Shown: one piece after another, positions 1 through 22,518 of the stretch
Layout: each line of letters starts with the position of its first letter
How positions within the stretch are numbered: position 1 is the stretch's first letter
Origin: Opitutales bacterium
GTDB taxonomy: Bacteria > Verrucomicrobiota > Verrucomicrobiia > Opitutales > PNEW01
Length of the DNA: 32,000 nucleotides
Direction: 5' to 3'
Assembly: GCA_965219535.1 (NCBI GenBank)
Contig: CBDCNV010000002.1
Coordinates: forward strand, 1,290,001-1,322,000
Notes under the pieces: model-generated
Told to the model about the DNA's origin: nothing
Database searches by the model: none
Seen by the model: only the letters and a program-made list of their open reading frames with translations
Made by a program: the position numbers and the translations under genes

Positions 1-1595
1 GCTTCAATCCCTCCCAGTGCCGTGTAAAAAGTGCTGAGTAGCCCCATGGACAGTATGCACACATAAATATTAATCCCCGTAATCGTGGAGAGAACAATTG
101 CTGGCAGGTACAAGATGAGGCTGATCCTAATCATTTGAAAGATGATAAACTGGAGGCTGCCAAATAAGCGGACTGCGACATTAAAGCGTAATTCCAGGTA
201 CTCATAGACGGTCGTAATGTTTAATCTTCGGAAAAAAGGCAGATAGAAATAGATAATAATTATCGGTACGATGAAGGCTCCAATTGTAGCGGGAAACATG
301 AACCAGTCCGTGGCATAAAGTAACGCTGGAGTGGCGATATAAGTCAGGGCACTGAGCCCGGTCCCCAGCATACTGATCGCCGCGGCCCACCAGGGAATAC
401 GGCGGCCAGCTAGAAAATAATCGTCGGTTCCCTTTTCTCGTCTGGAGAAATAAAGCCCCATAAAGACAAGGATCGACAGATAGAAAATAAGAAAAGTGTA
501 ATTAACGACACCGAAGGAAGCTTTTGCACCCGATTCATGCTTCATAAATTGAATTCTGGGTGTGTTTTCGCCGGAACTGAGCTCACCACTGACGAGCAGA
601 AATCCTCCCTTCCATGGCACAGCCTCGGCATTTGCCACCGCGCGGGGAATTTCTCCTTTGACGAGCCAGGTGTCAGTAATCGTGTGATAGGCGAGCAGAT
701 CGTGCGATTGTTTGAGTTTTTCATTTTCCCCAATATGTCTACCGCCAAAAATTATAATATGTGATTGGCCATAATTAATAACCGGAGCTGCAGTAATGGG
801 GTGAGGGGTGTCAGCGATCCTTTCCCATATTTTTTGTCGAAGTGAATAACGATAGCCGTCGGTCAGCGACTGTGTTTGAAGATCACCTTCCTCGTGCTGG
901 GTAATCCCTTCACCGCCTAAAAGATAAACATAACTCTTATCTCCCGTGTTTTGTCTGACCACTTTGGCATTTGTCCGGGCCGGACCATCCCAGGGGTCTA
1001 AACTATTCCACCCCGCCTCCAAATTAAGGAGATTGAGCGACCAGAATATTTTTGATAGCTCTGATTCTTCGGCTTCAACTTTTCCCCCTGCAACAAACAG
1101 CGTATCGCTGACAAGTGTGGCGTCGATGAATGAGACGGGATGTAGGAGAGGTGGCAGAGATTCCTGCTCTATCATCTGTGATTCGGTATTCCAGGTTAAT
1201 CGTGTCACCTGGTCTTGATTGCCATCTGCGTTTCTTCCACCAATCAGTATTAAACTGTTATCACTGATTACCGATGCACCATAAGCGAGTGGTGCCTTTA
1301 ATTTATATCCCTCTAGCCACTCATCCTGCTCATCATTGACGAGAACATAGATATCGTCGTACCAGGCAATTTTATCACTTTTCCATTTGGTGATATCAAA
1401 GGAGTCAGCGCCACCGGCGACAATCAGCGCGCCGTTGCTGACACCCGCGAATGCGCCACTCAAGCCAGATGGACGGGGCAGTTCGGGGAGTTCTTTCCAG
1501 GTGAAAGCTTCTTCCCTCTGGGACTCAACATTACTGCAACCACTAAAAAACAGGAGAGCCGCAATATAGGATGCAATGATCTGAGAACATTTCAT
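1..1595 (-). CDS. Fusion ORF (3' end outside window): lipoprotein-type signal peptide + Kelch-like beta-propeller (cyclically permuted NanM/YjhT-type mutarotase-like) domain (aa 1 to ~345), continuous in frame with a sodium:solute symporter (SSF) domain (from aa ~351)
   Basis: Absent from the ORF track because it runs off the left edge. ATG at 1595-1593. I read every in-frame minus-strand codon from 1595 to 1 and found no stop. N-terminus MKCSQIIASYIAALLFFSGCSN has a lipobox-like FSGC. SGAFAGVSNGALIVAGGADSF ... AVPWKGGFLLVSGELSSGENT resemble NanM-family blades. From the internal Met at 545: MKHESGAKASFGVVNYTFLIFYLSILVFMGLYFSRREKGTDDYFLAGRRIPWW, a canonical SSF N-terminus paralogous to 6049-7605. 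Confidence 0.8.
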   Translation of the reverse strand, partial: MKCSQIIASYIAALLFFSGCSNVESQREEAFTWKELPELPRPSGLSGAFAGVSNGALIVAGGADSFDITKWKSDKIAWYDDIYVLVNDEQDEWLEGYKLKAPLAYGASVISDNSLILIGGRNADGNQDQVTRLTWNTESQMIEQESLPPLLHPVSFIDATLVSDTLFVAGGKVEAEESELSKIFWSLNLLNLEAGWNSLDPWDGPARTNAKVVRQNTGDKSYVYLLGGEGITQHEEGDLQTQSLTDGYRYSLRQKIWERIADTPHPITAAPVINYGQSHIIIFGGRHIGENEKLKQSHDLLAYHTITDTWLVKGEIPRAVANAEAVPWKGGFLLVSGELSSGENTPRIQFMKHESGAKASFGVVNYTFLIFYLSILVFMGLYFSRREKGTDDYFLAGRRIPWWAAAISMLGTGLSALTYIATPALLYATDWFMFPATIGAFIVPIIIIYFYLPFFRRLNITTVYEYLELRFNVAVRLFGSLQFIIFQMIRISLILYLPAIVLSTITGINIYVCILSMGLLSTFYTALGGIE

Positions 1596-2052: not shown

Positions 2053-4278
2053 TCATTCAATGGTCAACTCTTCAACTGCTACCTCAATCGCATCGCCGTC
2101 TTCATTGGCGAAGGTGGCATCGATACTCAGGGTCGGTTGAGGGGTGTTGTCCGACTTGAAATTGTTCTGTGTGATCAGAGTATCGAATCCCGTTGTTGTC
2201 GATCCACTCTCAGCGACGACCACTGCGGCACCGTTCGTTTGCAAGAGGTCTCCACCCGTGATACGCAACCCGGGGTTGCCGGCTGGAACGGTGAAAGAGC
2301 CTGAGCCAAACAGTATGTGCGGTACTGCGTCGCCACTGGCATCGATGTCGCCAATCGTTAAGCGTACGCCGATCGGGACACCTCGCGCGTCGATACCGGT
2401 CTTGCCCGTACTTCCACTGAACGCGGTGTTCGACAACTGTACCCCTCCCAGTCCCGTAGAATTGACTACTTCCACAAGACTCACGTCCGCCTGGGCGTCA
2501 TAGACCTGTCCTTCGGGGAAGAGAGCCTGGTTAAAGGCGTTGATCCTACCCACGGTGAAGATACTGAAAAAGGTATTAGCGTCTGCTCCGTCGATGACCA
2601 CGCTCGGCTTGCCCGTCACGTACTCGACGGCCTGGTTGTAGCGTGGGGGAATGGCCGGGGGCAAGAAAGTGGCTGGATCGAGGGTTACGGTAAAGGTACC
2701 ATTACCTGAAAATTCAACCTGCACGATGTCCTCGTTTTCATCCATGAAGGAGACGCGGGTGATCTGTCCGGGTTTGGCCTGGAGTTGGACGGACTCTCCG
2801 GTGAGCAATATCTGATCGAAGACGTTACCGTTGGCATGTTGAATGTTTTCTCCAGCTATATCGCCCGAGCCGTCGAGGACGAGAGGGACGGAAGGTGCCG
2901 CTACCGTGACTACTGCGGTGTCGCTATCCGCGGTGCCCCCGGCGTTAGTAATCTGTACCCAGAAGCTTGTGCTCGCGGTGAGAGCGCCGGTGTCTAAGGT
3001 CCCGGTAGTCGCGCCGGCGACGGGACTGGCGGTGTCGCCGCTGTTGCCGGTAAACCACTGGTAAGTGAGATCGTCACCACTGGCGGTAACGGACAAGCTG
3101 GCTGAAGCGCCCGAAGCGACCTCCTGGCTCGCGGGCTGGGTAGTGATGGACGGGGCATCCGCGGGTGGGGGTCCTTCGGAGCCCGTGCCCGGTGCTCCGA
3201 TGGGCGTAAACCCAAAATCGTCGATCGTAGTACGACTGAAGTCAGGATTAATATCAGGATCATCATTAATAACTAGTTTGCCAATACCTCCCGGAGCTCC
3301 TAATTCATCCGCATTGATCGTTATAAAACGGGGTTTGAACAAGGGGTCGAGGAACCCTTCTAAATCCGTAAAGGTGGCGAGTAAGTTATCGTTTGTGTCG
3401 TAGACTTCAATTGAGCCGTCAGGATCGGTTTCACCTGCGGCAACCACATGCGCAGCAAAAGTATCTATTTCATAAGCCGGGGTTTCAAAGGTGACGGTAA
3501 AAGAGTCGCCATTAAAAACTCCGTAAGAATAAGGCCACGAACGAACATAGGCGAGATTACCTGAAGCTACAAAGATAATGAATCCTCCTTCTAAACTAAT
3601 ACTGTTGGGCGAGGTCCCGACGGTTAAAATTTCGTTCTGTCCCTGACCGGTGCCAAATTCTCTGAAAGTCGTGTAAACTGTATTGTTTGAAGGGAAATCC
3701 GTCAGGGTAAATCCCAGATCATCGAGCACAAATTTTCCTGTCACATTCAGCACCTTCATTTCGATTATGCCGTTAATGAAATTAAAATCGGTATCATCAA
3801 GAAAAACACCACTGTCGGCGACAAAGCTGTATAAGGTGGGATTGGCTCCTGGACTGATATTTGTCGGAAGTCCATCGATTCTGCCCCCATTGTCAGGTAT
3901 GACGACGACAACATCGTTGTTGCCTCCGGACTGGCCTAAATTAACTTCTCCTCTTATCTCCATTCTACCTCCGCCCGTTGTTTCACCCGCATAATATTGA
4001 AGAAATTGAATCCCCCTTGAGGATGAAATACGACCCTCCTGACCGGGTCCGAGGGTAATCGCTTTTGTTCCCGAATGCAAAAGCGCAGGATCCTCTAATG
4101 TTTCGACCGTGAATCCGGTCAGGGTGACCGTGTTTGGCTCCTGCCCTATGACGATGGTGCCTTCTCCGCTTACATCTTCAAAATCAGTGAATACTTCCAG
4201 GTCCTGTGGCAAGGCCATGAGAATGAAAGGGTAAGATACGATTAATATGAAGTGGGCGAACGATTTTTTGACTGACAT
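2053..4278 (-). CDS. Secreted or cell-surface protein of unknown function with a central Ig-like domain
   Basis: 741-aa ORF. Signal-like hydrophobic N-terminus (FAHFILIVSYPFILMA). APSITTQPASQEVASGASASLSVTASGDDLTYQWF...DTAVVTV is an Ig-like module of the type common in PVC surface proteins. No catalytic motif recognised. Confidence 0.75.
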   Translation of the reverse strand: MSVKKSFAHFILIVSYPFILMALPQDLEVFTDFEDVSGEGTIVIGQEPNTVTLTGFTVETLEDPALLHSGTKAITLGPGQEGRISSSRGIQFLQYYAGETTGGGRMEIRGEVNLGQSGGNNDVVVVIPDNGGRIDGLPTNISPGANPTLYSFVADSGVFLDDTDFNFINGIIEMKVLNVTGKFVLDDLGFTLTDFPSNNTVYTTFREFGTGQGQNEILTVGTSPNSISLEGGFIIFVASGNLAYVRSWPYSYGVFNGDSFTVTFETPAYEIDTFAAHVVAAGETDPDGSIEVYDTNDNLLATFTDLEGFLDPLFKPRFITINADELGAPGGIGKLVINDDPDINPDFSRTTIDDFGFTPIGAPGTGSEGPPPADAPSITTQPASQEVASGASASLSVTASGDDLTYQWFTGNSGDTASPVAGATTGTLDTGALTASTSFWVQITNAGGTADSDTAVVTVAAPSVPLVLDGSGDIAGENIQHANGNVFDQILLTGESVQLQAKPGQITRVSFMDENEDIVQVEFSGNGTFTVTLDPATFLPPAIPPRYNQAVEYVTGKPSVVIDGADANTFFSIFTVGRINAFNQALFPEGQVYDAQADVSLVEVVNSTGLGGVQLSNTAFSGSTGKTGIDARGVPIGVRLTIGDIDASGDAVPHILFGSGSFTVPAGNPGLRITGGDLLQTNGAAVVVAESGSTTTGFDTLITQNNFKSDNTPQPTLSIDATFANEDGDAIEVAVEELTIE

Positions 4279-4377: not shown

Positions 4378-5979
4378 CTAATTATCGGCAGAAGGGGCCT
4401 TGGGGATAATCACACTCCCGTCGGGAAGGACAGCTCGACAGGAAAAAGTCCAAGCTCCCCAGGTCCATCCCATATCGGGATTATCCAAATTTACCAAGAG
4501 TATGTTTTTGCCCTTCTTGAGCTTCACCTCGACGGCTCTGTACTTGTAAGGCTGGTGACTACCGAGGTTTTGCACTTTGTTGTCATTAAGACGAATTTTC
4601 ATTTCGTCATCCCAGCTCAAGTGTAAGGTTGCTTTAGTATCCTTATTTACTTCGAGGGTTGTAACTGCCGATGCATTGGCCGGCCACGTCACATTAGAAA
4701 TTCTACTCTGCACATTGAAAACATGTGAAAAATCGATAAAACCATGAGTGGCCGTGTGGCGCAATCCCGGTTCGATCGCATTCGCTTTTTCCCCCAATAT
4801 CTCATCCCCTCGATACAAAGACCATGTACCATCATCGGCTGAAGCCAGTATCGCGTCTGGCCCCTCGGCCCCTACCTGTTTTAATAGATCGTACTTGCCC
4901 CGTTTAATTTCCCTTTCTTCGCGCCAGGGTGGATTCCCGTACTGGAGGTCCTGAGGTGAAACCATTTTGACGAAAGGCCGGTGGGGTTCGGTCTGATACC
5001 AGTAAGCGGTCATGCACATATCGTTCGAGTGACTGCCCCATCGAAAGTGAAGCGATTTTTCGAAAGGCACCAGATCGTGGACATAAAATTTGTATGCGCT
5101 GAGTTCGTGCCGGGCCAGGGCTGGCCCCACATCTTTATACTCGAGATAGGGGATGCCGGTGTAGAGGTGAGTATTCGGTATGTGTCGAACACCACCGAAA
5201 GCGGTGTCGAAAGTGTTTTCCCCTCCTGCTGCGCGAAGATAGTGGGGGACGATACCGTCTTCACCCGTGGCTTCACCGTCGATATAGAAATTTTCTGAGC
5301 CGGCATGCGACCAGCGCTGCTCATCGGAGCGCAAACGAACACCGAGAGAAAATCCCATAAGGTAACCGCGTCCCACGGCATCCATGACAAAAAAATCATC
5401 ACCCCAGGCAGGTGCCGGGTTCTCACGACGCCAAGAAGCGTGAAAACGCAGGTCCTCATCAAAGTCGTCAGTCAGATACTTGTGCCAATCCAGGGTGTAA
5501 ATAAACTTTGCGCTTTTTATGGCCTCCACCTCAACGCGGGCGGAGCGGGCAAAGGGCATAGGGAAGTAACAGGCGAGAGCCCCCATATCACTTACCGAAA
5601 GATAATAGCTGTTAATATTATAGTGGCTGACATTATAATGAACGCCAAACAAATCGGGAAGGGGGGCTTCCACGCTGGGTGACTCTTCGCCATCCCAATA
5701 AATGCGCACGATAAAATTACGGCTCCCTTCCAACACGCGAAACTGAGCTCTTCGATCATTACTGGTCATATAGATATGCCGGATACAACCCGGACCCTCC
5801 AGTTCGGCAATTACTCGTCGCTCACCCGCCTCCATGGGAAATTTATCAAGCACACGTTCGTAACGGTATTTCTCCGGCAAGTTCAGCTTGTCTTCGATCG
5901 TCGCGGCTGAACATTCACCCACTATCCGGAACAAGGCTAAGACAGAGAGAATGACAGACGTCAGGTAAATCTTTTTCAT
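4378..5979 (-). CDS. Secreted DUF2961-like (CAZy GH172-like) putative glycoside hydrolase with an extra C-terminal beta-sandwich-like domain
   Basis: 533-aa ORF. Signal peptide MKKIYLTSVILSVLALFRIVGECSA. Motifs ENFYIDGE, GGENTFDTAFGG and TAYWYQ match my memory of DUF2961. About 150 aa of C-terminal extension. Family call not verified by search. Confidence 0.6.
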   Translation of the reverse strand: MKKIYLTSVILSVLALFRIVGECSAATIEDKLNLPEKYRYERVLDKFPMEAGERRVIAELEGPGCIRHIYMTSNDRRAQFRVLEGSRNFIVRIYWDGEESPSVEAPLPDLFGVHYNVSHYNINSYYLSVSDMGALACYFPMPFARSARVEVEAIKSAKFIYTLDWHKYLTDDFDEDLRFHASWRRENPAPAWGDDFFVMDAVGRGYLMGFSLGVRLRSDEQRWSHAGSENFYIDGEATGEDGIVPHYLRAAGGENTFDTAFGGVRHIPNTHLYTGIPYLEYKDVGPALARHELSAYKFYVHDLVPFEKSLHFRWGSHSNDMCMTAYWYQTEPHRPFVKMVSPQDLQYGNPPWREEREIKRGKYDLLKQVGAEGPDAILASADDGTWSLYRGDEILGEKANAIEPGLRHTATHGFIDFSHVFNVQSRISNVTWPANASAVTTLEVNKDTKATLHLSWDDEMKIRLNDNKVQNLGSHQPYKYRAVEVKLKKGKNILLVNLDNPDMGWTWGAWTFSCRAVLPDGSVIIPKAPSADN

Positions 5980-6048: not shown

Positions 6049-7605
6049 TCATTGATCACTGTTAACTGCCTTCCGACGGGAGTTTAGAATATCCCAAAAA
6101 GTAAGATTTCTTGAATCGGGTTTTGGACCGCCGCAGAGTGCGCTCGCCACTAATCCGACGAAGACTAAAACAAGATGGTTGAAAACGCCAATAATGTAGG
6201 GATTCAAGGTGTAATTAAAGCGTCCCAGATTAAGTAAGGGTGTATTTGACCCTGGAAGATTAACTCCGGTTACAGTTGCCCAGCCGGTAAAAAGAAAACA
6301 AAAAATAATTCCAATATATGCACCCCTTGAAGTCGTCCAGCGAAAGAGGAATCCAAGCGCGAAGAGGCCGAGGATTCCCCCGGTTACGATTGAGGCAACG
6401 GTAATAGATAATTCAATAACGGATCGAATACCGATCCATTGCTGAGCGATAAAGATTGAGGATGCTCCCAGTATCGCGACAACGATCTTTCCCACGATTA
6501 ACTGATGCCTGTCATTTGCGTCTGGTAAAATACGTACATAGAAGTCTTTAACCATGACGGTTGCGAGCGAGTTTAATTCGGAGTCCAAAGAAGACATGGC
6601 GGCACCAATCAGCGCCGCGAGTAAAATTCCGATCACGGCCGCTGGTAATTGGGTTTTGATAAAATAAGGCATGATGAAGTCCTTGGATTCGAGCACTTCG
6701 GTCGGTAGTTGCTCGAGTGACAATTCATAAAACGCCCACAACAAAGCGCCGACGATGGAAAATAAAATCCAGACCGGAACGCACGCTGAAGCTCCGATAT
6801 AAGCGCCCTGTGCCGCTTCCCGATCCGAGCGAGCGAGGAGAAAACGCTGTACATTACTTTGATCACAGGCCAAATATTGGATCGTGAAAAAAGTCCCACC
6901 AATGACGTAGAACCATTGATTATGTTCATACCAATCGAAGTTCCAGTTACCCATCGCAAATTTTCCTCCCTCCCACGCCTTGGAGATTACCACGCTTGCA
7001 CCTTCGTTCGGAGTGAAGAGTAATACAAATAAACAAATCAGGCCGCCGATTACGAGTAGGGTGCCTTGTATTACATCGGTCCACACGACCGCTTCAATCC
7101 CGCCGATCATCGTGTAAATTACAGTCACCGCGCCCAGGATGAGGATTACCCACCACACATCCCAGCCACTCAAATAACCGACGGCAATCGCTAAAAAATA
7201 AAAGGTGACACTGACGTCGATAACATGACTGACGATGAACGCCGCCGCCCCGTATGCGCGCGCGGGATAACCAAACCGTTTTTCCAAATATCCATAGGCT
7301 GTCATGCGCACCGTTCGGCGATAGAAAGCAACGAGGTAATAAGAAATGAAAATCATGACTAGCGGCCAGACAAACTGCCGGGGCAATGACCACATATTAG
7401 TTTTATAAACTTCACCGGGGAGTCCGATAAAGGTGGCACTGCTGATAACCGTGCCCATAATTGAAAAACCAACCACCCACCCCGGTAAATTGCGGCCAGC
7501 GAGAAAATAGTCCTCGGTCGATTTCTGCCGGCGCGAAAAATACAATCCCAGCGTCCCCAGGATGCAGAGATATATGACAATAACCGTTATTTCGATAATG
7601 CCCAA
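6049..7605 (-). CDS. Sodium:solute symporter family (SSF/SSS) transporter
   Basis: 518-aa ORF with many hydrophobic segments. LYFSRRQKSTEDYFLAGRNLPGWVVGFSIMGT is a typical SSF N-terminus. TTG start at 7605 is forced by an in-frame TAA three codons upstream. Confidence 0.9.
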   Translation of the reverse strand: MGIIEITVIVIYLCILGTLGLYFSRRQKSTEDYFLAGRNLPGWVVGFSIMGTVISSATFIGLPGEVYKTNMWSLPRQFVWPLVMIFISYYLVAFYRRTVRMTAYGYLEKRFGYPARAYGAAAFIVSHVIDVSVTFYFLAIAVGYLSGWDVWWVILILGAVTVIYTMIGGIEAVVWTDVIQGTLLVIGGLICLFVLLFTPNEGASVVISKAWEGGKFAMGNWNFDWYEHNQWFYVIGGTFFTIQYLACDQSNVQRFLLARSDREAAQGAYIGASACVPVWILFSIVGALLWAFYELSLEQLPTEVLESKDFIMPYFIKTQLPAAVIGILLAALIGAAMSSLDSELNSLATVMVKDFYVRILPDANDRHQLIVGKIVVAILGASSIFIAQQWIGIRSVIELSITVASIVTGGILGLFALGFLFRWTTSRGAYIGIIFCFLFTGWATVTGVNLPGSNTPLLNLGRFNYTLNPYIIGVFNHLVLVFVGLVASALCGGPKPDSRNLTFWDILNSRRKAVNSDQ

Positions 7606-7614
7606 GGTGTATTA

Positions 7615-7646
7615 GTCAAAAGGTCAAAAGGTCAAAAAGTCAAAAG
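7615..7646 (-). promoter_or_regulatory. Leader array (CTTTTGAC-class, 8-nt period, 4 units) upstream of start 7605
   Basis: GTC unit starts at 7615, 7623, 7631 and 7639. 9-nt spacer (taatacacc) to the TTG start. Confidence 0.7.
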
Positions 7647-7648
7647 GG

Positions 7649-7704
7649 GAAATGCGTAAATGAGATAATGCGGTGATGCGACTAAGCGGAAATGCCGTAA
7701 TTGG
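7649..7704. repeat. 8-nt-period degenerate array, WAATGCGN class (7 units)
   Basis: gaaatgcg taaatgag ataatgcg gtgatgcg actaagcg gaaatgcc gtaattgg. Confidence 0.65.
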
Positions 7705-7726
7705 CAGGTATGTCCTGCATCCTCAT

Positions 7727-7887
7727 TTGTCATTGCGAAGGAGGCGTAGCCGACTGCGGCTACCGAGCGCAGCGACATCTTCCATTCCAGGGGATGTCGG
7801 TTACGTAATGGTAGCCCCTTGGAATGGAAGATGTCGCTATGCTTGGTAGCTTTGTCTCACACAGATTCGGGATTCTCGCAATGACAA
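7727..7887. repeat. REP/MITE-like palindromic element, copy B (161 bp, nested hairpin)
   Basis: Outer arms ttgtcattgcgaagg (7727-7741) and ctcgcaatgacaa (7875-7887). Inner arms gcgacatcttccattccagg (7772-7791) and ccttggaatggaagatgtcgc (7817-7837), complementary apart from one extra base. Confidence 0.75.
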
Positions 7888-7904
7888 TAAGAAATCAATC
7901 CAAA

Positions 7905-7952
7905 ATCGCATCATCGCATACACGTATGTTCGCATCATCGTGTATGCGCATA
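7905..7952. repeat. 8-nt-period array, NCGCATNN class (inverse orientation of 7649-7704)
   Basis: atcgcatc atcgcata cacgtatg ttcgcatc atcgtgta tgcgcata. Confidence 0.6.
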
Positions 7953-7953
7953 T

Positions 7954-7980
7954 CCTTTGACATTCGATTCGATGTTCGAC
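7954..7980 (+). promoter_or_regulatory. Degenerate leader array (TTTGAC/TTCGAT/TTCGAC) upstream of 8015
   Basis: cctttgac attcgat tcgat gttcgac. It lies 34 nt from the GTG start, so it is looser than the phase-locked copies. Confidence 0.45.
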
Positions 7981-8014
7981 ATTTATTATCACTGAATTTT
8001 AAAAGGCGTCGCCT

Positions 8015-8893
8015 GTGGTAACATTAAATAAATCGGATGCTTCGATTGCATTCACACCTCTGACTCCGGTTGTGGGAGCGGAATGTAGTGGTGTCGATAT
8101 TTCCCAACCGGTATCGGATGAGACTATTGCTGCTATCAATAATGCGTTGGCTGAGTACGGTGTGCTGCTCTTTCGCGACCAGGATATTACACCTGAACAG
8201 CATATCGACTTCAGTCGAAAGTTCGGTCAGCTTGACATTCATGTCCTCGACCAGTTTCTTCTGACCGGCCATCCGGAGATCTATATAATCTCCAACGTGG
8301 TGGAAAATGGTAAGCACATCGGCGCGCATGGGGGAGCGAAGCATTTTCACTCCGATCTCTCCTATAATCCCGAACCGAGCCTGGGATCGCTTTTCCTCTG
8401 CCGTGAATGTCCACCCAAAGGGGGGCAGACTGAGTTTGCCGGCATGTTTGCCGCTTATGATGCGTTGCCCAAGGAGCGAAAACAATGGCTGGCACAGCAG
8501 CGTGGCGTTCACGACTACGTGTATCATTACGAGACTTTTCTACCCCACCGCAAACCGTTGACGGAGGAACAGAAAGCTAAGCTATCGCCCTCAGCTCACC
8601 CCGCAATCCGCACCCATCCGGTAAGTGGACGAAAGGGGATCTATCTCTCTGAAGCACTGACTTCACACCTGGAGGGCGTGGATGTAGAGGAGGGCCGGAA
8701 ACTGATCAAGGAAATTTGCGATTTTGCCACGCAACCTCAATTCGTCTATCGTCACGAATGGCGTGTCGGTGATCTGGTGTTCTGGGACAACCGCGCGGTG
8801 ATGCATCGCGCCCTGCCGTTTGACGAGGATCAGTCCCGACGAGTGATGCATCGAACCACGGTCCACGGAGACAAACCTTTCCTGAAGGTGTAA
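8015..8893 (+). CDS. TauD/TfdA-family Fe(II)/2-oxoglutarate-dependent dioxygenase
   Basis: 292-aa ORF, GTG start. HFHSDLSY (HxD facial-triad motif), WDNRAVMHRA (distal His) and SRRVMHRTTV (Arg pair) are typical of the family. Confidence 0.85.
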   Translation: MVTLNKSDASIAFTPLTPVVGAECSGVDISQPVSDETIAAINNALAEYGVLLFRDQDITPEQHIDFSRKFGQLDIHVLDQFLLTGHPEIYIISNVVENGKHIGAHGGAKHFHSDLSYNPEPSLGSLFLCRECPPKGGQTEFAGMFAAYDALPKERKQWLAQQRGVHDYVYHYETFLPHRKPLTEEQKAKLSPSAHPAIRTHPVSGRKGIYLSEALTSHLEGVDVEEGRKLIKEICDFATQPQFVYRHEWRVGDLVFWDNRAVMHRALPFDEDQSRRVMHRTTVHGDKPFLKV

Positions 8894-8895
8894 GC

Positions 8896-8943
8896 CGATT
8901 GCGTATACGGGTGAATGCGTATAAGCGAGAATGCGGATATTGT
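8896..8943. repeat. 8-nt-period AATGCG-class array starting 2 nt after stop 8893
   Basis: cgattgcg tatacggg tgaatgcg tataagcg agaatgcg gatattgt. Confidence 0.6.
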
Positions 8944-8970
8944 TTAGATAAACTGGCATCCTGTATGAAA

Positions 8971-9010
8971 CCGCATTGCCGCATTCACACTTTTTCGCAT
9001 CTACGCATTT
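8971..9010. repeat. 8-nt-period CGCATT-class array (inverted relative to 8896-8943)
   Basis: ccgcattg ccgcattc acactttt tcgcatct acgcattt. Together with 8896-8943 it forms an imperfect intergenic palindrome. Confidence 0.6.
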
Positions 9011-9040
9011 TCTTTTGACATTAGACCTTCGACTTTTGAC
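9011..9040 (+). promoter_or_regulatory. Leader array (TTTGAC/TTAGAC/TTCGAC, 7-nt period, 4 units) upstream of start 9051
   Basis: GAC ends at 9019, 9026, 9033 and 9040. 10-nt spacer tctaatttcc to the ATG. Confidence 0.7.
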
Positions 9041-9050
9041 TCTAATTTCC

Positions 9051-10640
9051 ATGAGAGACCTGAGACAAGACAGCACACAACTCTACATTGCGGATCAGGT
9101 TCAGTCTTTTGTAGATAATTTAATCCTGGAATCAGTGACCGATGTTACGCGGCGCTGGTATACACCTGAGCGGGTTGGTGACGGACCGGTTCTCGTAAAA
9201 ACTGAATCCTGGGAAGGTTTACCCTATTTCGGGAGCAACACCACGGTGATCCGCGATCCAGACGACGGGCTTTTCAAATGTTGGTATGAGATTATGGTTG
9301 GTGAACCCGATAAAAGCAAAATGGCCCTCGGTATGGAATCCTACGTTTGTTATGCCACGAGTGAAGATGGTATTCACTGGGAAAAGCCAGAGTTCGATGT
9401 CACCATTTTAGAGGGTAGTAAAACAAATATCATTTTGGGCAGCCCTGAATCCGGAGGCGCGCATGCCATGACTGTAATCAGGGACCCTTATCCAAAGTCC
9501 GAAGCGGAACGTTTTAAAGGGATGGTAACGCTTATGTGGGATCAGAACAAAAACCGCCGCATCGTCAGCGCGCACTCGCCGGATGGAATCAACTGGCAGA
9601 TTAGCGACGAGGTTCTTCGTATCGGCATGGCTGGACCAAGGTTGTGTGACGTTCACATCGTAGGCTATGACGAGGACGCCCGTGAATATGTTTGCTACAC
9701 GCGCCATTTCCTCATGACTGCCGGCGCTACGCGCGTACGCTTTGTTCGCGATCAAACCTTCGGTCGACCCTTAGAATTGGATAACTTCGCCACCTATTGC
9801 CAGCGACGCGTGTGGGTTATGCGCAGCTCTGATTTCATTCATTGGAGCGAACCGGTTTTGGTCGCTGCGGTCGATGAGAGCGAAGATAATTTAGATGAAT
9901 CCTTTTATTACATGGTACCCTATAAGGTGGGGACCCAGCATTTGGCGCCGGTGGGCGTGTTCAAATCGGTTGATAACGAGATGGAGGTACAGCTTCTGCA
10001 CAGTCGAGACGGTCTCCGCTGGCAGCGCGCGATGAAACGGCAACCGTTCGTAGCTCATCGCGGCGAAGGTTTCTGGGACGCGCACATGGTATTCATCACG
10101 ACACCCCCGATCGAAGTGGATAATAAATTATATTTCTATTATAGTGGAACGAACTTTCATCACGACTGGTGGCTGGTCGGCTTGCGCGAGGGGATCGACC
10201 ACCCGGAGGCAAAAGATCCATTAGGTTGTGGGAACGCGTTCGCGATGGGTCTGGCAACCATGAGAAAAGACGGATACGCTTCGCTTTACGCCAACCGGTT
10301 TCGCCAGGGTATTGTTATTACACGGAATTTGATTAGTCTTGGAACTCAGCTTATTATCAATGCCCGTTGCGCCCCCGGGGGGTCAATCAGGGTCGAGGTC
10401 CAGAACCGCCTGGATAAAGTCCTTGGAGAATGCAGCATCGATAACAGCGACGCTTTCAGTGGTGACAGCGTCGAACATACGATGACGTGGAAAGGCGATC
10501 CAACAATCCCCGCCGGTCGCGGTCAGGAACTCTACTGGCGCAAGCTCAGATTCCATTTGCGAGACGCCGAATTGTTTTCTTTCCGTTTTACCCATGAGAC
10601 CGAAGAAAGCGATCCCTTCAAGACCGAGAAGGAGTGGTAG
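9051..10640 (+). CDS. Cytoplasmic beta-propeller protein with Asp-box-like motifs; putative glycoside hydrolase of the GH32/43/130-like fold + C-terminal beta-sandwich (paralog 1)
   Basis: The ORF track starts at 8976, but those 25 codons translate the repeat arrays. ATG 9051 aligns with the start of the paralog (MRDLRQDSTQLYIADQVQ). Motifs IRDPDDGLFKCWYE, ATSEDGIHWEKP, SPDGINW, SSDFIHWSEP, SRDGLRW. No signal peptide. Function uncertain. Confidence 0.7.
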   Translation: MRDLRQDSTQLYIADQVQSFVDNLILESVTDVTRRWYTPERVGDGPVLVKTESWEGLPYFGSNTTVIRDPDDGLFKCWYEIMVGEPDKSKMALGMESYVCYATSEDGIHWEKPEFDVTILEGSKTNIILGSPESGGAHAMTVIRDPYPKSEAERFKGMVTLMWDQNKNRRIVSAHSPDGINWQISDEVLRIGMAGPRLCDVHIVGYDEDAREYVCYTRHFLMTAGATRVRFVRDQTFGRPLELDNFATYCQRRVWVMRSSDFIHWSEPVLVAAVDESEDNLDESFYYMVPYKVGTQHLAPVGVFKSVDNEMEVQLLHSRDGLRWQRAMKRQPFVAHRGEGFWDAHMVFITTPPIEVDNKLYFYYSGTNFHHDWWLVGLREGIDHPEAKDPLGCGNAFAMGLATMRKDGYASLYANRFRQGIVITRNLISLGTQLIINARCAPGGSIRVEVQNRLDKVLGECSIDNSDAFSGDSVEHTMTWKGDPTIPAGRGQELYWRKLRFHLRDAELFSFRFTHETEESDPFKTEKEW

Positions 10641-10766: not shown

Positions 10767-12356
10767 ATGAGGGATTTGAAACAGGATAGCACACAACTCT
10801 ACATTGCGGATCAGGTACAGACCTTCGTCGATAACTTAATCCTCGAATCGGTAACCGACGTCACGCGGCGCTGGCACACACCCGAGCGAGTCGGCGACGG
10901 TCCAGTTCTCACAAAGACAGAACCTTGGGAAGGTTTACCCTATTTTAACTGTGCAACCACAATCATCCGCGATCCGGATGACGGCCTATTCAAATGTTGG
11001 TATGAAATCATGGTAGGCGAGCCCGATAAGAGCTATATTGCTCTGGGTATGGATTCCTACTCGTGTGTGGCAACGAGTGAGGACGGTCTTCACTGGGATA
11101 AACCAGCGCTTGATAATTTGATCGTGGATGGGCGCAAAACGAATATAATTCTGGGCAGCCCTGAAACCGGGGGTGCGCATTCTATGACCGTGATCAAGGA
11201 CCCTTATCCAAAGTCGGAGGCGGAGCGCTTCAAGGGGATGCTTACCCTAATGTGGGACCATAACAAGAACCGCAGGATCGTTACCGCCTACTCGCCGGAT
11301 GGAATCAATTGGAAGATAAATGACGATGTTCCACGGATTGGGCTGGCCGGTCCGAGACTTTGCGACGGCCACAACCTCGCCTATGACGAGGATGCCCGTG
11401 AATACGTTTGCTACACGCGCCATTTTCTCATGACTGCAGGAGCTACGCGCGTACGCTTTGTTCGTGATCAAACCTTTGGTCGCCCCTTAGAGCCGGATAA
11501 CTTCGCCACCTATTGCCAGCGACGTGTCTGGGTTATGCGCAGCACTGATTTTATTCATTGGAGCGAACCAGTTCTGATAGCTGCAGCTGATGAAAGTGAA
11601 GATAATCTGGATGAATCTTTTTATTACATGGTTCCTTATAAACTGGGCGGGTTGTATCTTGGACCGACGGGCATGTTCAAGTCGGTAGACAACGAGATAG
11701 AAGTTCAACTTCAATATAGCCGCGACGGACTTCGCTGGCAGCGCGCATTGAAACGACAACCGTTCCTTGCTCATCGCGGTGAAGGATTTTGGGATGCTCA
11801 CCTCGTATATATAAATAACCCGCCGATCGAAGTGGACGATAAACTTTATTTTTATTATAGCGGGAGCAACTTTCATCACGACTGGTGGATGGTCGGATTA
11901 CGGGAAGGGATCGACCATCCTGAGGCAATAGATCCACTGGGCTGTGGGAGTGCTTTTGGAGTGGGGTTGGCAACCTTGAGAAAAGACGGATATGCCTCAC
12001 TTTACGCCAATCAGCACCGGCAAGGTGTTGTCATTACGCGTAACTTTATTAGTCTGGGGACTCAGCTTGTTATCAATGCCTTCTGCGCACCGGGTGGTTC
12101 GATCCGAGTCGAAGTTCAAAACCGTTTGGATAAAGTCCTCGGAGAATGTACCATCGAGAACAGCGACGCTTTCACCGGTGACAGTGTCGAGCATACCATG
12201 ACCTGGAAAGGTGATCCGACGATCCCAGCCGGACGCGGGCAGGAACTCTACTGGCGCAAGCTCAGATTCCATTTGCGCGATGCCGAATTGTTTTCATTTC
12301 GTTTCACCCATGAGACTGAAGATGAATCTCCCTACAAGACGGAAAAAGAGTGGTGA
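10767..12356 (+). CDS. Cytoplasmic beta-propeller GH-like protein (paralog 2 of 9051-10640)
   Basis: 529-aa ORF, collinear with paralog 1 and mostly identical by eye. The two share a 38-nt perfect nucleotide match (10524-10561 = 12240-12277). Confidence 0.7.
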   Translation: MRDLKQDSTQLYIADQVQTFVDNLILESVTDVTRRWHTPERVGDGPVLTKTEPWEGLPYFNCATTIIRDPDDGLFKCWYEIMVGEPDKSYIALGMDSYSCVATSEDGLHWDKPALDNLIVDGRKTNIILGSPETGGAHSMTVIKDPYPKSEAERFKGMLTLMWDHNKNRRIVTAYSPDGINWKINDDVPRIGLAGPRLCDGHNLAYDEDAREYVCYTRHFLMTAGATRVRFVRDQTFGRPLEPDNFATYCQRRVWVMRSTDFIHWSEPVLIAAADESEDNLDESFYYMVPYKLGGLYLGPTGMFKSVDNEIEVQLQYSRDGLRWQRALKRQPFLAHRGEGFWDAHLVYINNPPIEVDDKLYFYYSGSNFHHDWWMVGLREGIDHPEAIDPLGCGSAFGVGLATLRKDGYASLYANQHRQGVVITRNFISLGTQLVINAFCAPGGSIRVEVQNRLDKVLGECTIENSDAFTGDSVEHTMTWKGDPTIPAGRGQELYWRKLRFHLRDAELFSFRFTHETEDESPYKTEKEW

Positions 12357-12505: not shown

Positions 12506-13528
12506 ATGATAGAAATACTTGATACCGACCTTATTTATCGGGGAGATGAGAGCGCTCCGCACTTTCGAAATACTTACTGGCCCAGTGTTGTAGAACTCGA
12601 CAACGGTGAGCTGCTGGCGGCATTGGATATCAGTAATTTCATTAACAGCCGTGACGCTCGCTCTTATTACAGTCTTTCAAAAGACCAAGGTAAAAGCTGG
12701 AGTGAGCCTAAGATAATCTGGGATGGAGACGGGTGGCCTTATCCCTTTCATACGACCTGCCGCATCAGCAAGGCACCGGGTGGTGAGGTCATCGGGTTTA
12801 TGGCAATCAAAGACCGGTCAGACAGTGAACAACCGCATACCAATCCGGAAAATGGGGGGATGATAAATATGGAGCATGCGGTCGTTCGCTGGGACAATGA
12901 TACTCAGAGCTGGTTAAAACCGGAAATATTTAAGCGTCCGCTAGAGTGGAATTGTTATGAGAGTTGTCATGCGATATTTCCCATTAGCGCGGAGAAATGG
13001 CTTTTACCCACCGCGTTTCGAACGAATTGGGAAGGGGAGTGCCCGTTTGGTCATAAAGCGTTTGCGTTTGTCACACGGGATGGCGGTAAGAGTTGGAATG
13101 AGATTGTCGACGTCTTTGATTGCTGGTCTGAAAATTTGATTTGTTGGGAACAGAAGCAGACGATCCTTTCCGACGGCAGAGTTTTTGCCGCGTGCTGGGC
13201 GTTTAATGCCGAGACAAAAGTGAACCATAAAAACCGTTACACATTTTCAGATGATAAGGGTGAATCTTATGGAGAAATTTTTGAAAGCCCTCTTTCAGGA
13301 CAGACTTGCACCCCAATAGGTTTAGCTGACAATCATATACTCGCCATCTACCGCCGCTTGGATAAAAATGGATTATGGGGACATCTGGCAAAAATCGAAG
13401 GAACTGAATGGATTTCAATCAGTGAAAAACTTATCTGGGGAGAAGACGTAGAAGCGATCAAGGGTGTTAAAGATCATTCGATACAAAATCAAAAGACCTT
13501 GCAATTTGGGTTTCCCACTGTGATATAG
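12506..13528 (+). CDS. BNR/Asp-box repeat sialidase-like beta-propeller protein, cytoplasmic; ends at an in-frame TAG followed by 29 further in-frame sense codons (to TAA 13616-13618)
   Basis: 340-aa ORF. Asp-boxes SKDQGKSWSEP, TRDGGKSWNE, SDDKGESYGE. No signal peptide. The post-TAG in-frame translation LRDGNIYFTFWCVENDLSNIRWYRLRSEV looks like a genuine last propeller blade. Confidence 0.75.
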   Translation: MIEILDTDLIYRGDESAPHFRNTYWPSVVELDNGELLAALDISNFINSRDARSYYSLSKDQGKSWSEPKIIWDGDGWPYPFHTTCRISKAPGGEVIGFMAIKDRSDSEQPHTNPENGGMINMEHAVVRWDNDTQSWLKPEIFKRPLEWNCYESCHAIFPISAEKWLLPTAFRTNWEGECPFGHKAFAFVTRDGGKSWNEIVDVFDCWSENLICWEQKQTILSDGRVFAACWAFNAETKVNHKNRYTFSDDKGESYGEIFESPLSGQTCTPIGLADNHILAIYRRLDKNGLWGHLAKIEGTEWISISEKLIWGEDVEAIKGVKDHSIQNQKTLQFGFPTVI

Positions 13529-13672: not shown

Positions 13673-14407
13673 TTGATTTCACTCATACTTATAACGTCAG
13701 GCATTATTTTTATTGCCTCTATTATTCGGTCTGCACTCGGCTTTGGAGAAGCGCTCATCGCGATGCCGCTCTTAGTGATGTTTCTTGGTTTATCCACCGC
13801 AACTCCGGTAGTCGGCTTCGTGGCGCTGACTTTGAGTGTCATCATCCTACAGAAAGATTGGCGCTTAGCCGATTTTAAATTAACTTGGCGCTTGGTCCTA
13901 ACATCGTTGATGGGGGTTCCGGTCGGTCTGTTAATGCTAAAAGGTGTAGCCGACGAGTTGATGCAGGGCTTACTGGGAATAGTGCTGATTGCTTATGGGT
14001 TGTATAAAATAGTGAGACCTGAACACCTCTTAAAAGAAGATCGCTTCGGGTTGGTTTACCTCTTCGGTTTCCTCTCGGGCATTCTGGGCGGCGCCTACAA
14101 CACTAACGGTCCCCTGGTCGTTATCTACGCCAACCTGCGGCGATGGCCTCCGCAGCAATTTCGCAGTACCATGCAAAGTTATTTTTTGCCGATCGGGTTT
14201 TTTACGATGATTGGACAGGGGGTCGCCGGTTTATGGACGACCAAAGTTATCACGCTCTATCTCAGTTCCCTGCCGTTAATTTTTCTCGCCGTTTACATCG
14301 GAAGAAAAGTCCACATGTCTTTTGCACCCCACCGTTTTGATCGTATCATCAGCACCGTCTTGCTGCTCATGGGACTGTTACTTATAATTCGAATACTGAT
14401 GAATTAG
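13673..14407 (+). CDS. TauE/SafE (DUF81) family anion (sulfite/sulfonate-type) exporter
   Basis: 244-aa polytopic membrane ORF with two G-rich half-repeats (RSALGFGEALIAMPLL, SGILGGAYNTNGPLVV). TTG start at 13673 is tentative; an in-frame TAA at 13655-13657 limits upstream extension. Confidence 0.75.
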   Translation: MISLILITSGIIFIASIIRSALGFGEALIAMPLLVMFLGLSTATPVVGFVALTLSVIILQKDWRLADFKLTWRLVLTSLMGVPVGLLMLKGVADELMQGLLGIVLIAYGLYKIVRPEHLLKEDRFGLVYLFGFLSGILGGAYNTNGPLVVIYANLRRWPPQQFRSTMQSYFLPIGFFTMIGQGVAGLWTTKVITLYLSSLPLIFLAVYIGRKVHMSFAPHRFDRIISTVLLLMGLLLIIRILMN

Positions 14408-14509: not shown

Positions 14510-15373
14510 CTAAATGACCCAGTGCCGGTAAAGTTGCTTAACGTTATCCGGTAGTTTATCGAAGACGTCTTTTCGAATCGGAATCGCGTCGTAGTTCTTG
14601 CCGCCTCTTTCGACCACCATGCGATCGTGATCGGGAGTGCCTTTCATCGTCGGTGTAAGGTTGAGCCACCACGGCGCATAGCGTACGATTAACGCGACCC
14701 GGGATTCGTCACAGATATTCGGTGCCACGGCATGCCACATACGGCTGTCATAAAGCAGTACGCTACCCTCCGGACCCAAGGCCTGGCGCTCGTCGGGATT
14801 TGGTGCGTCGAGATCAATTCCCTCCATCTCTCCTGTTGCCGGGTTGTTTGTCAGGCGATGGCTTTTGGGAAGAATAAATGTGGCTCCGTTTTCTTTCGTG
14901 AAGTGAGTCAACATCCAGATCGATGATAGGTGCATGATCATATTGCCGTAGGGCGCTTTGACATGCGTGGAGTTAGTCCCGTTATAGGGCCAGTCGGCGT
15001 GCCAATAGCCGCGGTCACCGCCGGGTTGGTTGATCACCGTGTCCGTACACGAAATCCGTGCATAGTCGCCGAAAAAATATTCTACTGTTCCGAGTATGCG
15101 TTCATCGACAAGGTAGGGCGCAAAGCACTGCGTGGCATTGATCACCTGCTTGAGCACCGCGACCCCCGGTGTGCCAATGCGATGGCCGCGTGACCGCGTT
15201 TTCGCCAGCTCTGCTTCCGCTTCTTCATTATGAGCGTGTTGCGCGGCCATGACTTCAGAACGAATGGCGTCCACCTTATCCGCTGGAATTACCCCCTCGA
15301 CGACGCAATAACCCTCTCGCTCGATTTGAGAAACAATAGCGTCCACCGGCATCTGTTTAATCGAAGTTTCCAT
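14510..15373 (-). CDS. Phytanoyl-CoA dioxygenase (PhyH) family Fe(II)/2-oxoglutarate oxygenase
   Basis: 287-aa ORF. YWHADWPY (HxD), GATFILPKSH, SRMWHAVAPN, RVALIVRY. Confidence 0.8.
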   Translation of the reverse strand: METSIKQMPVDAIVSQIEREGYCVVEGVIPADKVDAIRSEVMAAQHAHNEEAEAELAKTRSRGHRIGTPGVAVLKQVINATQCFAPYLVDERILGTVEYFFGDYARISCTDTVINQPGGDRGYWHADWPYNGTNSTHVKAPYGNMIMHLSSIWMLTHFTKENGATFILPKSHRLTNNPATGEMEGIDLDAPNPDERQALGPEGSVLLYDSRMWHAVAPNICDESRVALIVRYAPWWLNLTPTMKGTPDHDRMVVERGGKNYDAIPIRKDVFDKLPDNVKQLYRHWVI

Positions 15374-16827: not shown

Positions 16828-16836
16828 TTCTTATTG

Positions 16837-17610
16837 ATGCATGAAGGAAAACTTTTAAGCGACAAGCTGAAATCCGGCGATATCTGCCTGGGCATTTTCA
16901 ATACCTCGAGTGATCCCTGTATCACTGAGCTACTCAGTGGCTCAGGGTACGACTTTATTATTATCGATGCTGAGCACGGTGCACTTAATATCGAGACCGT
17001 ACAGGCTAATATCATGGCGACGATGGGTAGTAACACGGTTCCGCTGGTTCGCGTGCCGATCAATGATGAAGCTTATATTAAGCGTTTGCTTGACGCAGGA
17101 GTGGGTGGGATTCTTGTGCCCCAGGTTCGCAACGCTGAGGATGTTAAGCAAGCGGTTGCTGCCTGTCTTTACCCGCCGGAAGGTATTCGCGGGTTCGGAC
17201 CGCGTCGACCTGCCAACTACGAGCGTAATTATGCCGAGGTTGCCGAATCGGCTAACGATCATATTGTAGCCTGGGTCCAGATCGAAAACATGGGAGCTGT
17301 AAATGAGATCGAAGAGATCGTCCGCACTCCGCATCTTTCTGGAGTTATTATTGGTCCCAATGACCTCGCGGCATCGCTGGGGGTAATTTTTCAGAAAGAA
17401 CATCCGACGGTTCTTGAAGCCATCCAGAAAGTGAAAAGTGCCGCACACGAGGCAGGCATGCCCGTGGGAATGGCGGGGACTAAGGATCCGGAGGGTGCTA
17501 TCGGATGGATCAAGGACGGTTTTCAATTCGCGACGCTGAATAATACAAATGGCCTCCTCATGCGGGCCAGCCAGGATTTCATTGCCAGGGTGAAAGAGGG
17601 AATCGCTTAA
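16837..17610 (+). CDS. HpcH/HpaI-family class II aldolase (2-keto-3-deoxy-sugar-acid aldolase, YfaU/LRA4-like)
   Basis: ORF track starts at TTG 16834; ATG 16837 preferred. Motifs FIIIDAEHG, LVRVP, PQVRNAEDV, IENMGAV, IGPNDLA. Confidence 0.85.
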   Translation: MHEGKLLSDKLKSGDICLGIFNTSSDPCITELLSGSGYDFIIIDAEHGALNIETVQANIMATMGSNTVPLVRVPINDEAYIKRLLDAGVGGILVPQVRNAEDVKQAVAACLYPPEGIRGFGPRRPANYERNYAEVAESANDHIVAWVQIENMGAVNEIEEIVRTPHLSGVIIGPNDLAASLGVIFQKEHPTVLEAIQKVKSAAHEAGMPVGMAGTKDPEGAIGWIKDGFQFATLNNTNGLLMRASQDFIARVKEGIA

Positions 17611-17612
17611 TC

Positions 17613-17647
17613 AATTGCCGATTGCCGATATGCGATTTCAGATTGAA
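17613..17647 (+). repeat. 7-nt-period array, GATTGCS class (5 units), starting 2 nt after stop 17610
   Basis: aattgcc gattgcc gatatgc gatttca gattgaa. Confidence 0.6.
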
Positions 17648-17708
17648 CCGTGAGAGGATATCCTGATGGTTTTTTACATAATTACATTTCCTTATTTACG
17701 CAGATCCA

Positions 17709-17739
17709 TTTTGACATTCTGACCTTTTGACATTTTGAC
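17709..17739 (+). promoter_or_regulatory. Leader array (TTTTGAC/TTCTGAC, exact 8-nt period, 4 units) upstream of start 17750
   Basis: GAC ends at 17715, 17723, 17731 and 17739. 10-nt spacer tcttccttac to GTG 17750. Confidence 0.7.
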
Positions 17740-17749
17740 TCTTCCTTAC

Positions 17750-18913: not shown

Positions 18914-18972
18914 AAATAAGCTTTATGATTTTCTGATTGCTCGAATGATAAAATCAAATTGAGAATGGAAAA

Positions 18973-19824: not shown

Positions 19825-19834
19825 TGTCAATGAG

Positions 19835-19874
19835 GATATGCGTGAAAGCGAAAATGTGTAAATGCGATAATGGG
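19835..19874. repeat. 8-nt-period AATGCG-class array after stop 19824
   Basis: gatatgcg tgaaagcg aaaatgtg taaatgcg ataatggg. Confidence 0.55.
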
Positions 19875-19924
19875 GATTGATAGTTGATTAATCCTAACGG
19901 TTATATCTTTCTCTCTTGCAACTG

Positions 19925-19966
19925 CTGAACCCTGAACCCTGAACCCTGAACCCCGAACCCTGAACT
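19925..19966 (+). promoter_or_regulatory. Heptamer tandem array (CTGAACC)x6 ending 3 nt before ATG 19970
   Basis: ctgaacc x4, ccgaacc, ctgaact, then atc ATG. Confidence 0.75.
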
Positions 19967-19969
19967 ATC

Positions 19970-21109: not shown

Positions 21110-21110
21110 C

Positions 21111-21166
21111 GATTGCAGAATGCGGATTGAGGAATATCGATTATCGATCGTCGATTGCAGATTGAT
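21111..21166 (+). repeat. 7-nt-period array, GATTGCR class (8 units), starting 1 nt after stop 21109
   Basis: gattgca gaatgcg gattgag gaatatc gattatc gatcgtc gattgca gattgat. Confidence 0.7.
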
Positions 21167-21225
21167 CCCTATGGATACCCTCTCATTCATCCAGCCTTCC
21201 ATACTACCAATGTTTCAGCTATCAT

Positions 21226-21281: not shown

Positions 21282-21315
21282 CCGCCTGTCCTGAGCTTAG
21301 CCGAAGGAAATACTC

Positions 21316-22468: not shown

Positions 22469-22518
22469 ATTCAGCTACAACCTGCCTATGATTAATGTTA
22501 AATCAACCTGGGTAAATT

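Follow-up and report, generated by a model that had tools for sequence, protein, structure and literature searches.

A 32,000-nucleotide stretch of an Opitutales bacterium genome (assembly GCA_965219535.1, contig CBDCNV010000002.1, positions 1,290,001 to 1,322,000; hereafter the window) carries at one edge the 5' part of a gene that joins a NanM-type propeller to a sodium:solute symporter (SSS) domain in a single frame (1..1595, minus strand). The fusion is real and recurrent. Its architecture is already catalogued as SiaF, and the copy in the window is a diverged Opitutales paralogue. We consider it fairly probable that the gene product is a SiaF-type Na+-coupled importer of an acidic sugar with the NanM-type propeller on the outer face.

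Translation of positions 1-1595 of the minus strand gave 531 codons with 0 stops before running off the window edge. This agrees with an earlier sequence-only reading, which had described an uninterrupted frame from 1595; the landmarks quoted there (LLFFSGC, ENTPRIQFMKHESGAKASFG, and LYFSRREKGTDDYFLAGRRIPWW) were all present in the translation. The ATG at 1595 is the earliest possible start, with an in-frame stop 16 codons upstream. At full length, orthologues of the gene encode 852-867 amino acids (aa), and the best match, P0001, has 856 aa and was 92% identical over the whole query. The closest genome was that of the Opitutales (Verrucomicrobiota) metagenome-assembled genome (MAG) OY829953.1. 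In Pfam, NANM (PF24996) matched at 111 bits (E 6e-32; gathering score 45) and SSF (PF00474) at 52 bits over aa 393-530 (threshold 22.8), alongside several Kelch families. The NCBIfam scan detected TIGR00813 'sss' and the YjhT-type models TIGR03547 and PRK14131, which matched with the C-terminal parts of the models first. Both a NanM-like mutarotase domain and an SSF N-terminus, as proposed in the sequence-only reading, were thus recovered by profile searches.

The first 20 residues (1536..1595, minus strand) contain a hydrophobic segment and a lipobox-like FSGC with Cys20 at 1536-1538; judged by pattern alone, they form a putative leader peptide for export of the NanM domain. The FSGC motif was kept in the orthogroup of the window's gene, and a lipobox-like motif was found in just 45 of 121 family members. 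Lipidation of the fusion protein is possible, yet it is no family-wide feature.

A homologue search across 5.8 billion proteins returned 2383 matches. PF24996 and PF00474 occurred together in one protein in all 120 of the matches listed, most of which were 820-890 aa long, with few truncated. Stand-alone permuted mutarotases are said to be encoded beside SSS transporters, in the family description of TIGR03548 and in the sequence-only reading, and a frameshift, an assembly error, or a lost stop could have merged such a gene with its SSS neighbor. A DNA alignment of about 270 bp over the domain junction spoke against this origin. It contained no indel in four independent assemblies, namely the window, the Opitutales MAG chromosome OY829953.1 (locus L003), a short ENA contig (L002), and a 3.1 Mb ENA contig (L001), and the differences among them were mostly at third codon positions. 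No stop or frameshift of the kind that would have split the gene in two was therefore present at the junction. The connector between the domains was strongly constrained, and the structural model was confident across it. Because the junction was free of indels and its changes were mostly at third positions, and given the two-domain homologues, we regard an artefact as ruled out for practical purposes, with a probability close to nil.

The N-terminal domain (aa 28-354; 534..1514, minus strand) is a NanM-like, cyclically permuted six-bladed Kelch propeller, as assigned by PF24996, a match to TIGR03548 below its cut-off, a permuted alignment, and an AlphaFold2 model. When the product of E. coli K-12 nanM was permuted at precursor residue 247, 309 positions aligned to the propeller, 75 of them identical, which placed the start of the propeller at about mature residue 228 of E. 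coli NanM (EcNanM). The helical dimerization insert of EcNanM (about mature residues 125-170) was largely unmatched and has no counterpart in the propeller, and the model was all-beta, with no helix within aa 28-354. The propeller is probably monomeric, because this insert is absent. Foldseek placed it at a TM-score of about 0.8 to Kelch propellers.

Glu-209 and Arg-215 of NanM are reportedly important for activity. Both sit in the EcNanM motif NGEAKPGLRT, and their numbering fits a 19-aa signal peptide, as checked on K-12 nanM. The corresponding motif in the window's gene is SGELSSGENT (aa 336-345; 561..590, minus strand). Its E338 (582-584) is the equivalent of EcNanM Glu209 and was Glu in 118 of 121 sequences. 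Two further polar residues held in common with EcNanM were near-invariant: R207, equivalent to R56, and D246, equivalent to D87. Arg occupied the Arg215-equivalent position in 77 of the 121 family members and was replaced throughout the orthogroup of the window's gene.

The AlphaFold2 model was built for P0001 on 110 homologues, with a predicted local distance difference test score (pLDDT) of 86.6 and a predicted template modeling score (pTM) of 0.86. In this model the last propeller strand spans aa 348-354 and transmembrane helix 1 (TM1) begins at residue 363. The connector (aa 355-362; 510..533, minus strand), defined by model secondary structure and column conservation, is therefore about 8 residues long, and it ends in a near-invariant F361-G362. 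The 20-aa linker of the sequence-only reading is thus mostly propeller, comprising the tail of the catalytic motif and the last beta-strand. The catalytic Glu (E338) lies about 25 residues ahead of TM1. Against three orthologues, the propeller had a ratio of nonsynonymous to synonymous substitution rates (dN/dS) of 0.22-0.45, aa 346-362 one of 0.07-0.13, and the SSS part one of 0.07-0.10. Purifying selection acts on both domains, and notably on the connector, which fits a fixed rather than a floppy arrangement of the domains.

The C-terminal domain is SiaT-like. The window covers its N-terminal part (aa 363-531; 1..509, minus strand), and statements on its 13 transmembrane helices (TMHs) and N-out orientation rest on P0001. 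The best solved relative was Proteus mirabilis SiaT (PmSiaT; PDB ID: 5NV9; E 3.9e-42 for the window fragment and 2e-97 for P0001), followed by SMVT, SMCT1, and NIS, all anion carriers, and then by SGLTs. P0001 aligned with residues 5-490 of the 496 aa of PmSiaT, which makes its SSS domain one of the SiaT lineage, N-out and with 13 TMHs. Its membrane domain superposed on 5NVA with a TM-score of 0.95, a root mean square deviation of 2.1 Å, and 36% identity. The topology assumed in the sequence-only reading, with an extracytoplasmic N-terminus that allows an exported domain to be attached, is coherent with this result.

In PmSiaT, the Na2 site is reportedly formed by Ala56, Leu59, Ala339, Ser342, and Ser343, and the Na3 site by Asp182, Ser342, Ser345, and Ser346. 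Among the Na2 residues, Leu59, Ala339, Ser342, and Ser343 were kept in P0001 (L414, A693, S696, and S697), and Ala56 was Gly. Among the Na3 residues, Asp182 and Ser346 were kept (D537 and S700), and Ser345 was Asp at P0001 residue 699, beyond the window edge. Asp at this position was found in all aligned fused homologues, a family-wide difference from unfused SiaT. The carboxylate clamp of PmSiaT consists of Ser60, Thr63, and Arg135 (PMC5931594), and all three residues were kept in the window's gene as S415 (codon 351-353), T418 (342-344), and R490 (126-128, minus strand). In the fused homologues examined, the equivalents of Ser60 and Arg135 were invariant and that of Thr63 was Thr or Ser. Across the aligned fused homologues, the clamp, D182, and the Na2-site residues A339, S342, and S343 (or Thr) were invariant or nearly so.

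The pocket showed a different pattern. According to the published description of PmSiaT, Gly81, Gln82, Phe243, Asn247, and Gln250 line the N-acetylneuraminic acid (Neu5Ac) pocket, Ala246 makes no contact, and the substitution Gln82Asp abolishes transport (PMC5931594). The window itself covers positions 81 and 82, both of which were replaced (Pro/Ala or Ala/Thr, depending on the alignment); positions 243, 247, and 250 were read from P0001 and were Gly, Thr, and Val. Thr58 was replaced by Gly, and Ala246, in TM6, by Arg in the orthogroup of the window's gene. Positions 58, 78, 81, 82, 243, 246, 247, and 250 differed among paralogue groups, and none of the groups had the PmSiaT signature.

We propose that a secreted, probably lipid-anchored, monomeric propeller would be connected, by a link of about 8 residues, with TM1 of a SiaT-lineage Na+-coupled SSS symporter that imports a carboxylate-bearing anionic sugar. 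The propeller would lie above the outward-facing vestibule and handle the same sugar before entry. Its likeliest role would be to speed conversion of the anomer released by glycosidases to the anomer that is transported, as proposed for SiaF; the sequence-only reading had likewise suggested such a channelling device, and for SiaF it is the hypothesis of the original authors (PMC8461474). The cargo in the orthogroup of the window's gene is probably not Neu5Ac, and may be another ulosonic or a uronic-type acid; candidates are an ulosonic acid such as ketodeoxynonulosonic acid (KDN) or ketodeoxyoctonate (Kdo), a uronic acid, or another compound. EcNanM accepts KDN as well, and the enzyme family can thus do without the N-acetyl group (PMC8141875). 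With respect to the sialic-acid-like or ulosonic substrate suggested by the sequence-only reading, a carboxylated and possibly ulosonic sugar thus stayed plausible. The link to sialic acid was weak, because no nan genes lie near, the BNR gene discussed below is sub-threshold, and the Neu5Ac pocket is replaced.

Several observations weigh against this interpretation. The position of EcNanM Arg215 is N344 in the window's protein, Asn in P0001 and P0002, and Ser in P0003, and with this Arg lost the propeller may be no mutarotase at all. The match to TIGR03548, the cyclically permuted mutarotase family, scored 124 bits, under the 243-bit cut-off. In the pocket, HMMER and MAFFT aligned the TM2 positions 78, 81, and 82 differently. 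The orientation of the propeller, with its active face toward the vestibule, is deduced solely from the shortness of the connector and from the high model pTM. The neighboring genes (TauD-like, GH172, Ig_7, and the sugar-acid block) name no substrate, and nan genes could lie elsewhere in the genome, outside the loci covered. For SiaF itself, experimental evidence is very scarce, according to its authors (PMC8461474).

The most conventional alternative is that the protein is an ordinary Neu5Ac-specific SiaF, in which an active mutarotase feeds beta-Neu5Ac to the symporter and the nan genes are located elsewhere in the genome. The architecture is the same as that of published SiaF, PmSiaT is the closest solved transporter, and the clamp is kept. 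The replacement of Thr58 carries little weight against it, since this residue is poorly conserved and the T58A variant of PmSiaT is active (PMC5931594). Sialidase-like BNR genes occur in or near several of the loci, and the distant homologue P0065 (Saprospiraceae), which served as a positive control, lies in a clear nan-type cluster with GntR, four BNR_2, DHDPS, HpcH, and GHL10 genes. Neu5Ac is nevertheless unlikely as the cargo, because the contacts to its N-acetyl group and glycerol tail are replaced (Gln82, whose substitution by Asp kills transport in PmSiaT, as well as Phe243, Asn247, Gln250, and Gly81) and an Arg is newly present in TM6. The lost Arg215 equivalent argues in the same direction, as does the absence of nan genes nearby: neither the 32 kb window, which covers about 30 kb on its side of the gene, nor the roughly 9 kb past the 3' end in the orthologous locus L003 contained nanA (DHDPS), nanK, nanE, or AGE. 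At least six old paralogue subfamilies with different pockets in one genome are, moreover, hard to square with a single substrate. We therefore consider a Neu5Ac-specific SiaF improbable.

The main rival is a non-catalytic propeller that acts as a tethered domain for substrate capture or reception, or as a docking platform for co-encoded Ig_7 or glycosidase proteins. Besides the Arg215 equivalent, the family-consensus Arg340 is lost and R347 is not kept in the 92% identical orthologue. Measured by dN/dS, the transporter half lags behind, with the propeller evolving 3-5 times faster. Kelch propellers, to which Foldseek matched the domain, commonly serve as protein-interaction modules, and genes for Ig_7 proteins of about 740 aa repeatedly adjoin fusion genes. 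Retention of the catalytic Glu E338 and of R207 and D246 speaks for an enzyme, as does the purifying selection that still acts on the domain. Most subclades lose the Arg and all keep the Glu, a pattern that altered specificity fits equally well. On this evidence, a purely non-catalytic propeller seems rather unlikely, and an enzyme-coupled importer of an acidic sugar other than Neu5Ac stays the reading that we favor.

The gene is part of a paralogue radiation with at least seven subclades, and one related 3.1 Mb genome holds members of six of them. A single 3.1 Mb contig carried six fused paralogues (P0003, P0015, P0016, P0020, P0024, and P0044), which fell into six subclades of one radiation in a neighbor-joining tree of the SSS domain (drawn with no support values). 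Within the radiation, the Arg215 equivalent was kept by one subclade and by the deepest single branch, P0050, only. Outside it, the residue was kept by all distant lineages except one small clade and one isolated sequence. Motif changes in the propeller went together with pocket changes across paralogue groups; since these groups are clades, we did not count this as support for coupling.

None of the six paralogues adjoined a DHDPS/NanA gene, and no nanA (DHDPS), nanK, nanE, or AGE gene was found at the six paralogue loci of the contig. Two paralogues flank a sugar-acid operon with MR_MLE, 2-Hacid_dh, SDR, Amidohydro_2, GFO_IDH, and PhyH genes: P0015 and P0024 lie about 8.6 kb apart around this one operon (L004 9001-11583, and 20223 onward, which corresponds to L007 9001-11580). 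A BNR_2 gene directly follows one paralogue and another is near a second; after P0024, a 29-aa open reading frame (ORF) precedes a 431-aa BNR_2 sialidase-like gene. Two paralogues stand apart from obvious sugar-catabolic genes; taken together, the neighbors of the six copies include sugar-acid dehydratases, dehydrogenases, lactonases, and BNR_2 proteins. Around the homologue P0075 we found sialidase/esterase, PhyH, and sulfatase genes, and a 1387-aa protein combining sulfatase and sialidase (BNR_2/BNR_3) domains (L011 12259-16422) is encoded beside it, among three further sulfatase genes.

The radiation could be a toolkit of anomer-handling importers for various acidic sugars from marine or algal glycans, rather than a set of sialic-acid transporters, in a lineage that is probably Opitutales; we put this forward tentatively, as a possibility short of even chances. 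In such a toolkit, the motif of the propeller would have changed in step with the transporter pocket, and loss of the Arg would mark new mutarotase chemistry, a new class of substrate, or a non-catalytic tethered receptor. A multi-paralogue radiation of this kind, outside nan clusters and with an altered mutarotase motif, may be undescribed before.

Upstream of the fusion gene on the minus strand, the window encodes a 741-aa secreted Ig_7 protein (PF19081; 2053..4278; assigned by Pfam and with no PDB relative), a GH172 (DUF2961) glycoside hydrolase (4378..5979; 156 bits in Pfam and syntenic in L001), whose PDB relatives were an alpha-D-arabinofuranosidase and alphaFFase1, and a further SSS transporter, unfused and not SiaT-like, which is a conserved neighbor (6049..7605). 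A TauD/TfdA-family Fe/2-oxoglutarate (2OG) dioxygenase (8015..8893, plus strand) is divergently transcribed and also conserved; at 207 bits against the 313-bit taurine-dioxygenase cut-off, it is a generic member of its family. The order TauD, SSF, GH172, Ig_7, and fusion gene was syntenic in L001, a genome with a 75% orthologue. In the 457-bp region upstream of the start codon, a consensus scan found no sigma-70-like promoter and no intrinsic terminator, and across the whole window no match to an Rfam family was at or above threshold.

The Ig_7 neighbor was syntenic in L001 and L003 and recurs beside other paralogues, from which a functional link between the Ig_7 protein and the fusion may be inferred. 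Such secreted proteins of about 740 aa, with one Ig_7 domain each and no solved relative, stand directly beside NanM-SSS paralogues; besides 2053-4278 in the window, copies were found at 7585-9819 and 13884-16154 in L003, at 7265-9490 and from 22296 onward in L001, and at 4053-6263 in L004. In L003, Ig_7 genes lie on both sides of the fusion, and the one downstream shares 80% identity with the upstream copy of the window. The L003 genes that follow past the position of the window edge encode a PhyH protein, this further Ig_7 protein, an SDR, an SMP-30 lactonase, and a DAO oxidoreductase. PhyH dioxygenases likewise recur near fusion genes (L002 3010-3879, L003 12771-13640, L004 17770-18663, and L011 5149-5937), and in L002 and L003 the PhyH gene is immediately downstream of the orthologue and convergent with it.

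Farther along the plus strand follow two tandem proteins of 554 aa (8976-10640) and 529 aa (10767-12356), 85% identical to each other and with no Pfam or NCBIfam match, a BNR/sialidase-like protein (12506-13528), and a TauE sulfite-exporter homologue (13673-14407). A pair of 529-aa genes with no Pfam match also adjoins the TauD-like gene in L001. The BNR gene had been taken in the sequence-only reading as a clue to a sialic-acid substrate. It was below the Pfam thresholds and matched solved sialidases over aa 20-90 only (E 1.7e-5); with a match of 70 residues, we set it aside as a weak lead. The TauD-like, BNR-like, and TauE genes are clustered in the window, and a second set of SSF, TauE, and BNR_2 genes occurs in L001 at 18415-21925; the TauD/BNR/TauE cluster hints at processing of sulfonated or sulfated sugars.

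PhyH-family Fe/2OG dioxygenases are encoded at 14510-15373 (minus strand) and 22519-23367 (plus strand). A block of sugar-acid catabolism genes (16834-27096), all below the equivalog cut-offs, comprises a GarL/HpaI/RhmA-like (HpcH-type) aldolase, two L-rhamnonate-dehydratase-like proteins of the enolase superfamily, an SDR, two tandem UxuA-like proteins, an AKR, and a 2-hydroxyacid dehydrogenase; its rhamnonate-dehydratase-like, GarL/RhmA-like, and UxuA-like members are 15-27 kb from the fusion. A 405-aa ORF (19985-21202, minus strand) runs antisense to the UxuA-like gene of 19970-21109 and probably represents a spurious shadow ORF. GHL10 was also found among the more distant genes.

The fusion itself has been published, and the locus shows the SiaF architecture reaching well past nan clusters. 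In one related 3.1 Mb Verrucomicrobiota genome, six diverged copies combine constant clamp and Na+ sites with varied pockets and an often altered mutarotase motif. NCBI and JGI label the fusion proteins only as "SSS family" transporters or "sodium/solute symporter". Should the copies differ in the acidic sugars that they carry, this annotation hides an enzyme-coupled importer family relevant to marine glycan turnover, and the family would offer natural variants for probing anomer channelling by a fused propeller.

Among known systems, the closest is the SiaF clade of the ST5 group of SSS transporters, in which a NanM-SSS fusion was published in 2021 (Severi et al., Microb Genom, PMC8461474); this answers the question of cataloguing that the sequence-only reading had left open, and our literature searches found no newer work on SiaF. 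The published text describes a leader, a 'cyclically permutated mutarotase' (CPM) that forms a six-bladed propeller without the dimerization hairpin, and an N-out 13-TMH SSS domain, and it reports SiaF from Bacteroidetes, Planctomycetes, and Verrucomicrobia (PMC8461474). The window's gene is alike in its putative leader, its permuted propeller without the hairpin, its N-out SiaT-related SSS domain, and its single ORF. It differs in having no nan neighbor, whereas the published tree took only SSS proteins within a nan cluster, defined by at least one sialocatabolic gene (PMC8461474), and in lacking the Arg215 equivalent and the Neu5Ac-specific pocket residues. The paralogue radiation around it is likewise not described in the passages of PMC8461474 consulted.

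With E. coli NanM/YjhT (PDB ID: 2UVK), the propeller shares an extracytoplasmic six-bladed Kelch fold and the GE..PG..T motif, with equivalents of Glu209, Arg56, and Asp87. Unlike EcNanM, it is permuted, has no helical insert, carries Asn in place of Arg215, and is attached to a transporter; identity between the two is about 24% across the permuted alignment. With P. mirabilis SiaT (5NV9/5NVA), the membrane domain shares 36% identity, a TM-score of 0.95, the carboxylate clamp, the Na2 site, and Asp182, whereas the fusion adds an N-terminal propeller of about 355 aa, its pocket residues are changed, and Ser345 is replaced by Asp. The NanM-NanZ protein of Akkermansia (ST4) has a major facilitator superfamily membrane domain with an extra N-terminal TMH, which is not homologous to SSS; as described in PMC8461474, it is an independent case of a leader-bearing NanM-like domain placed N-terminal to a putative sialic-acid transporter.

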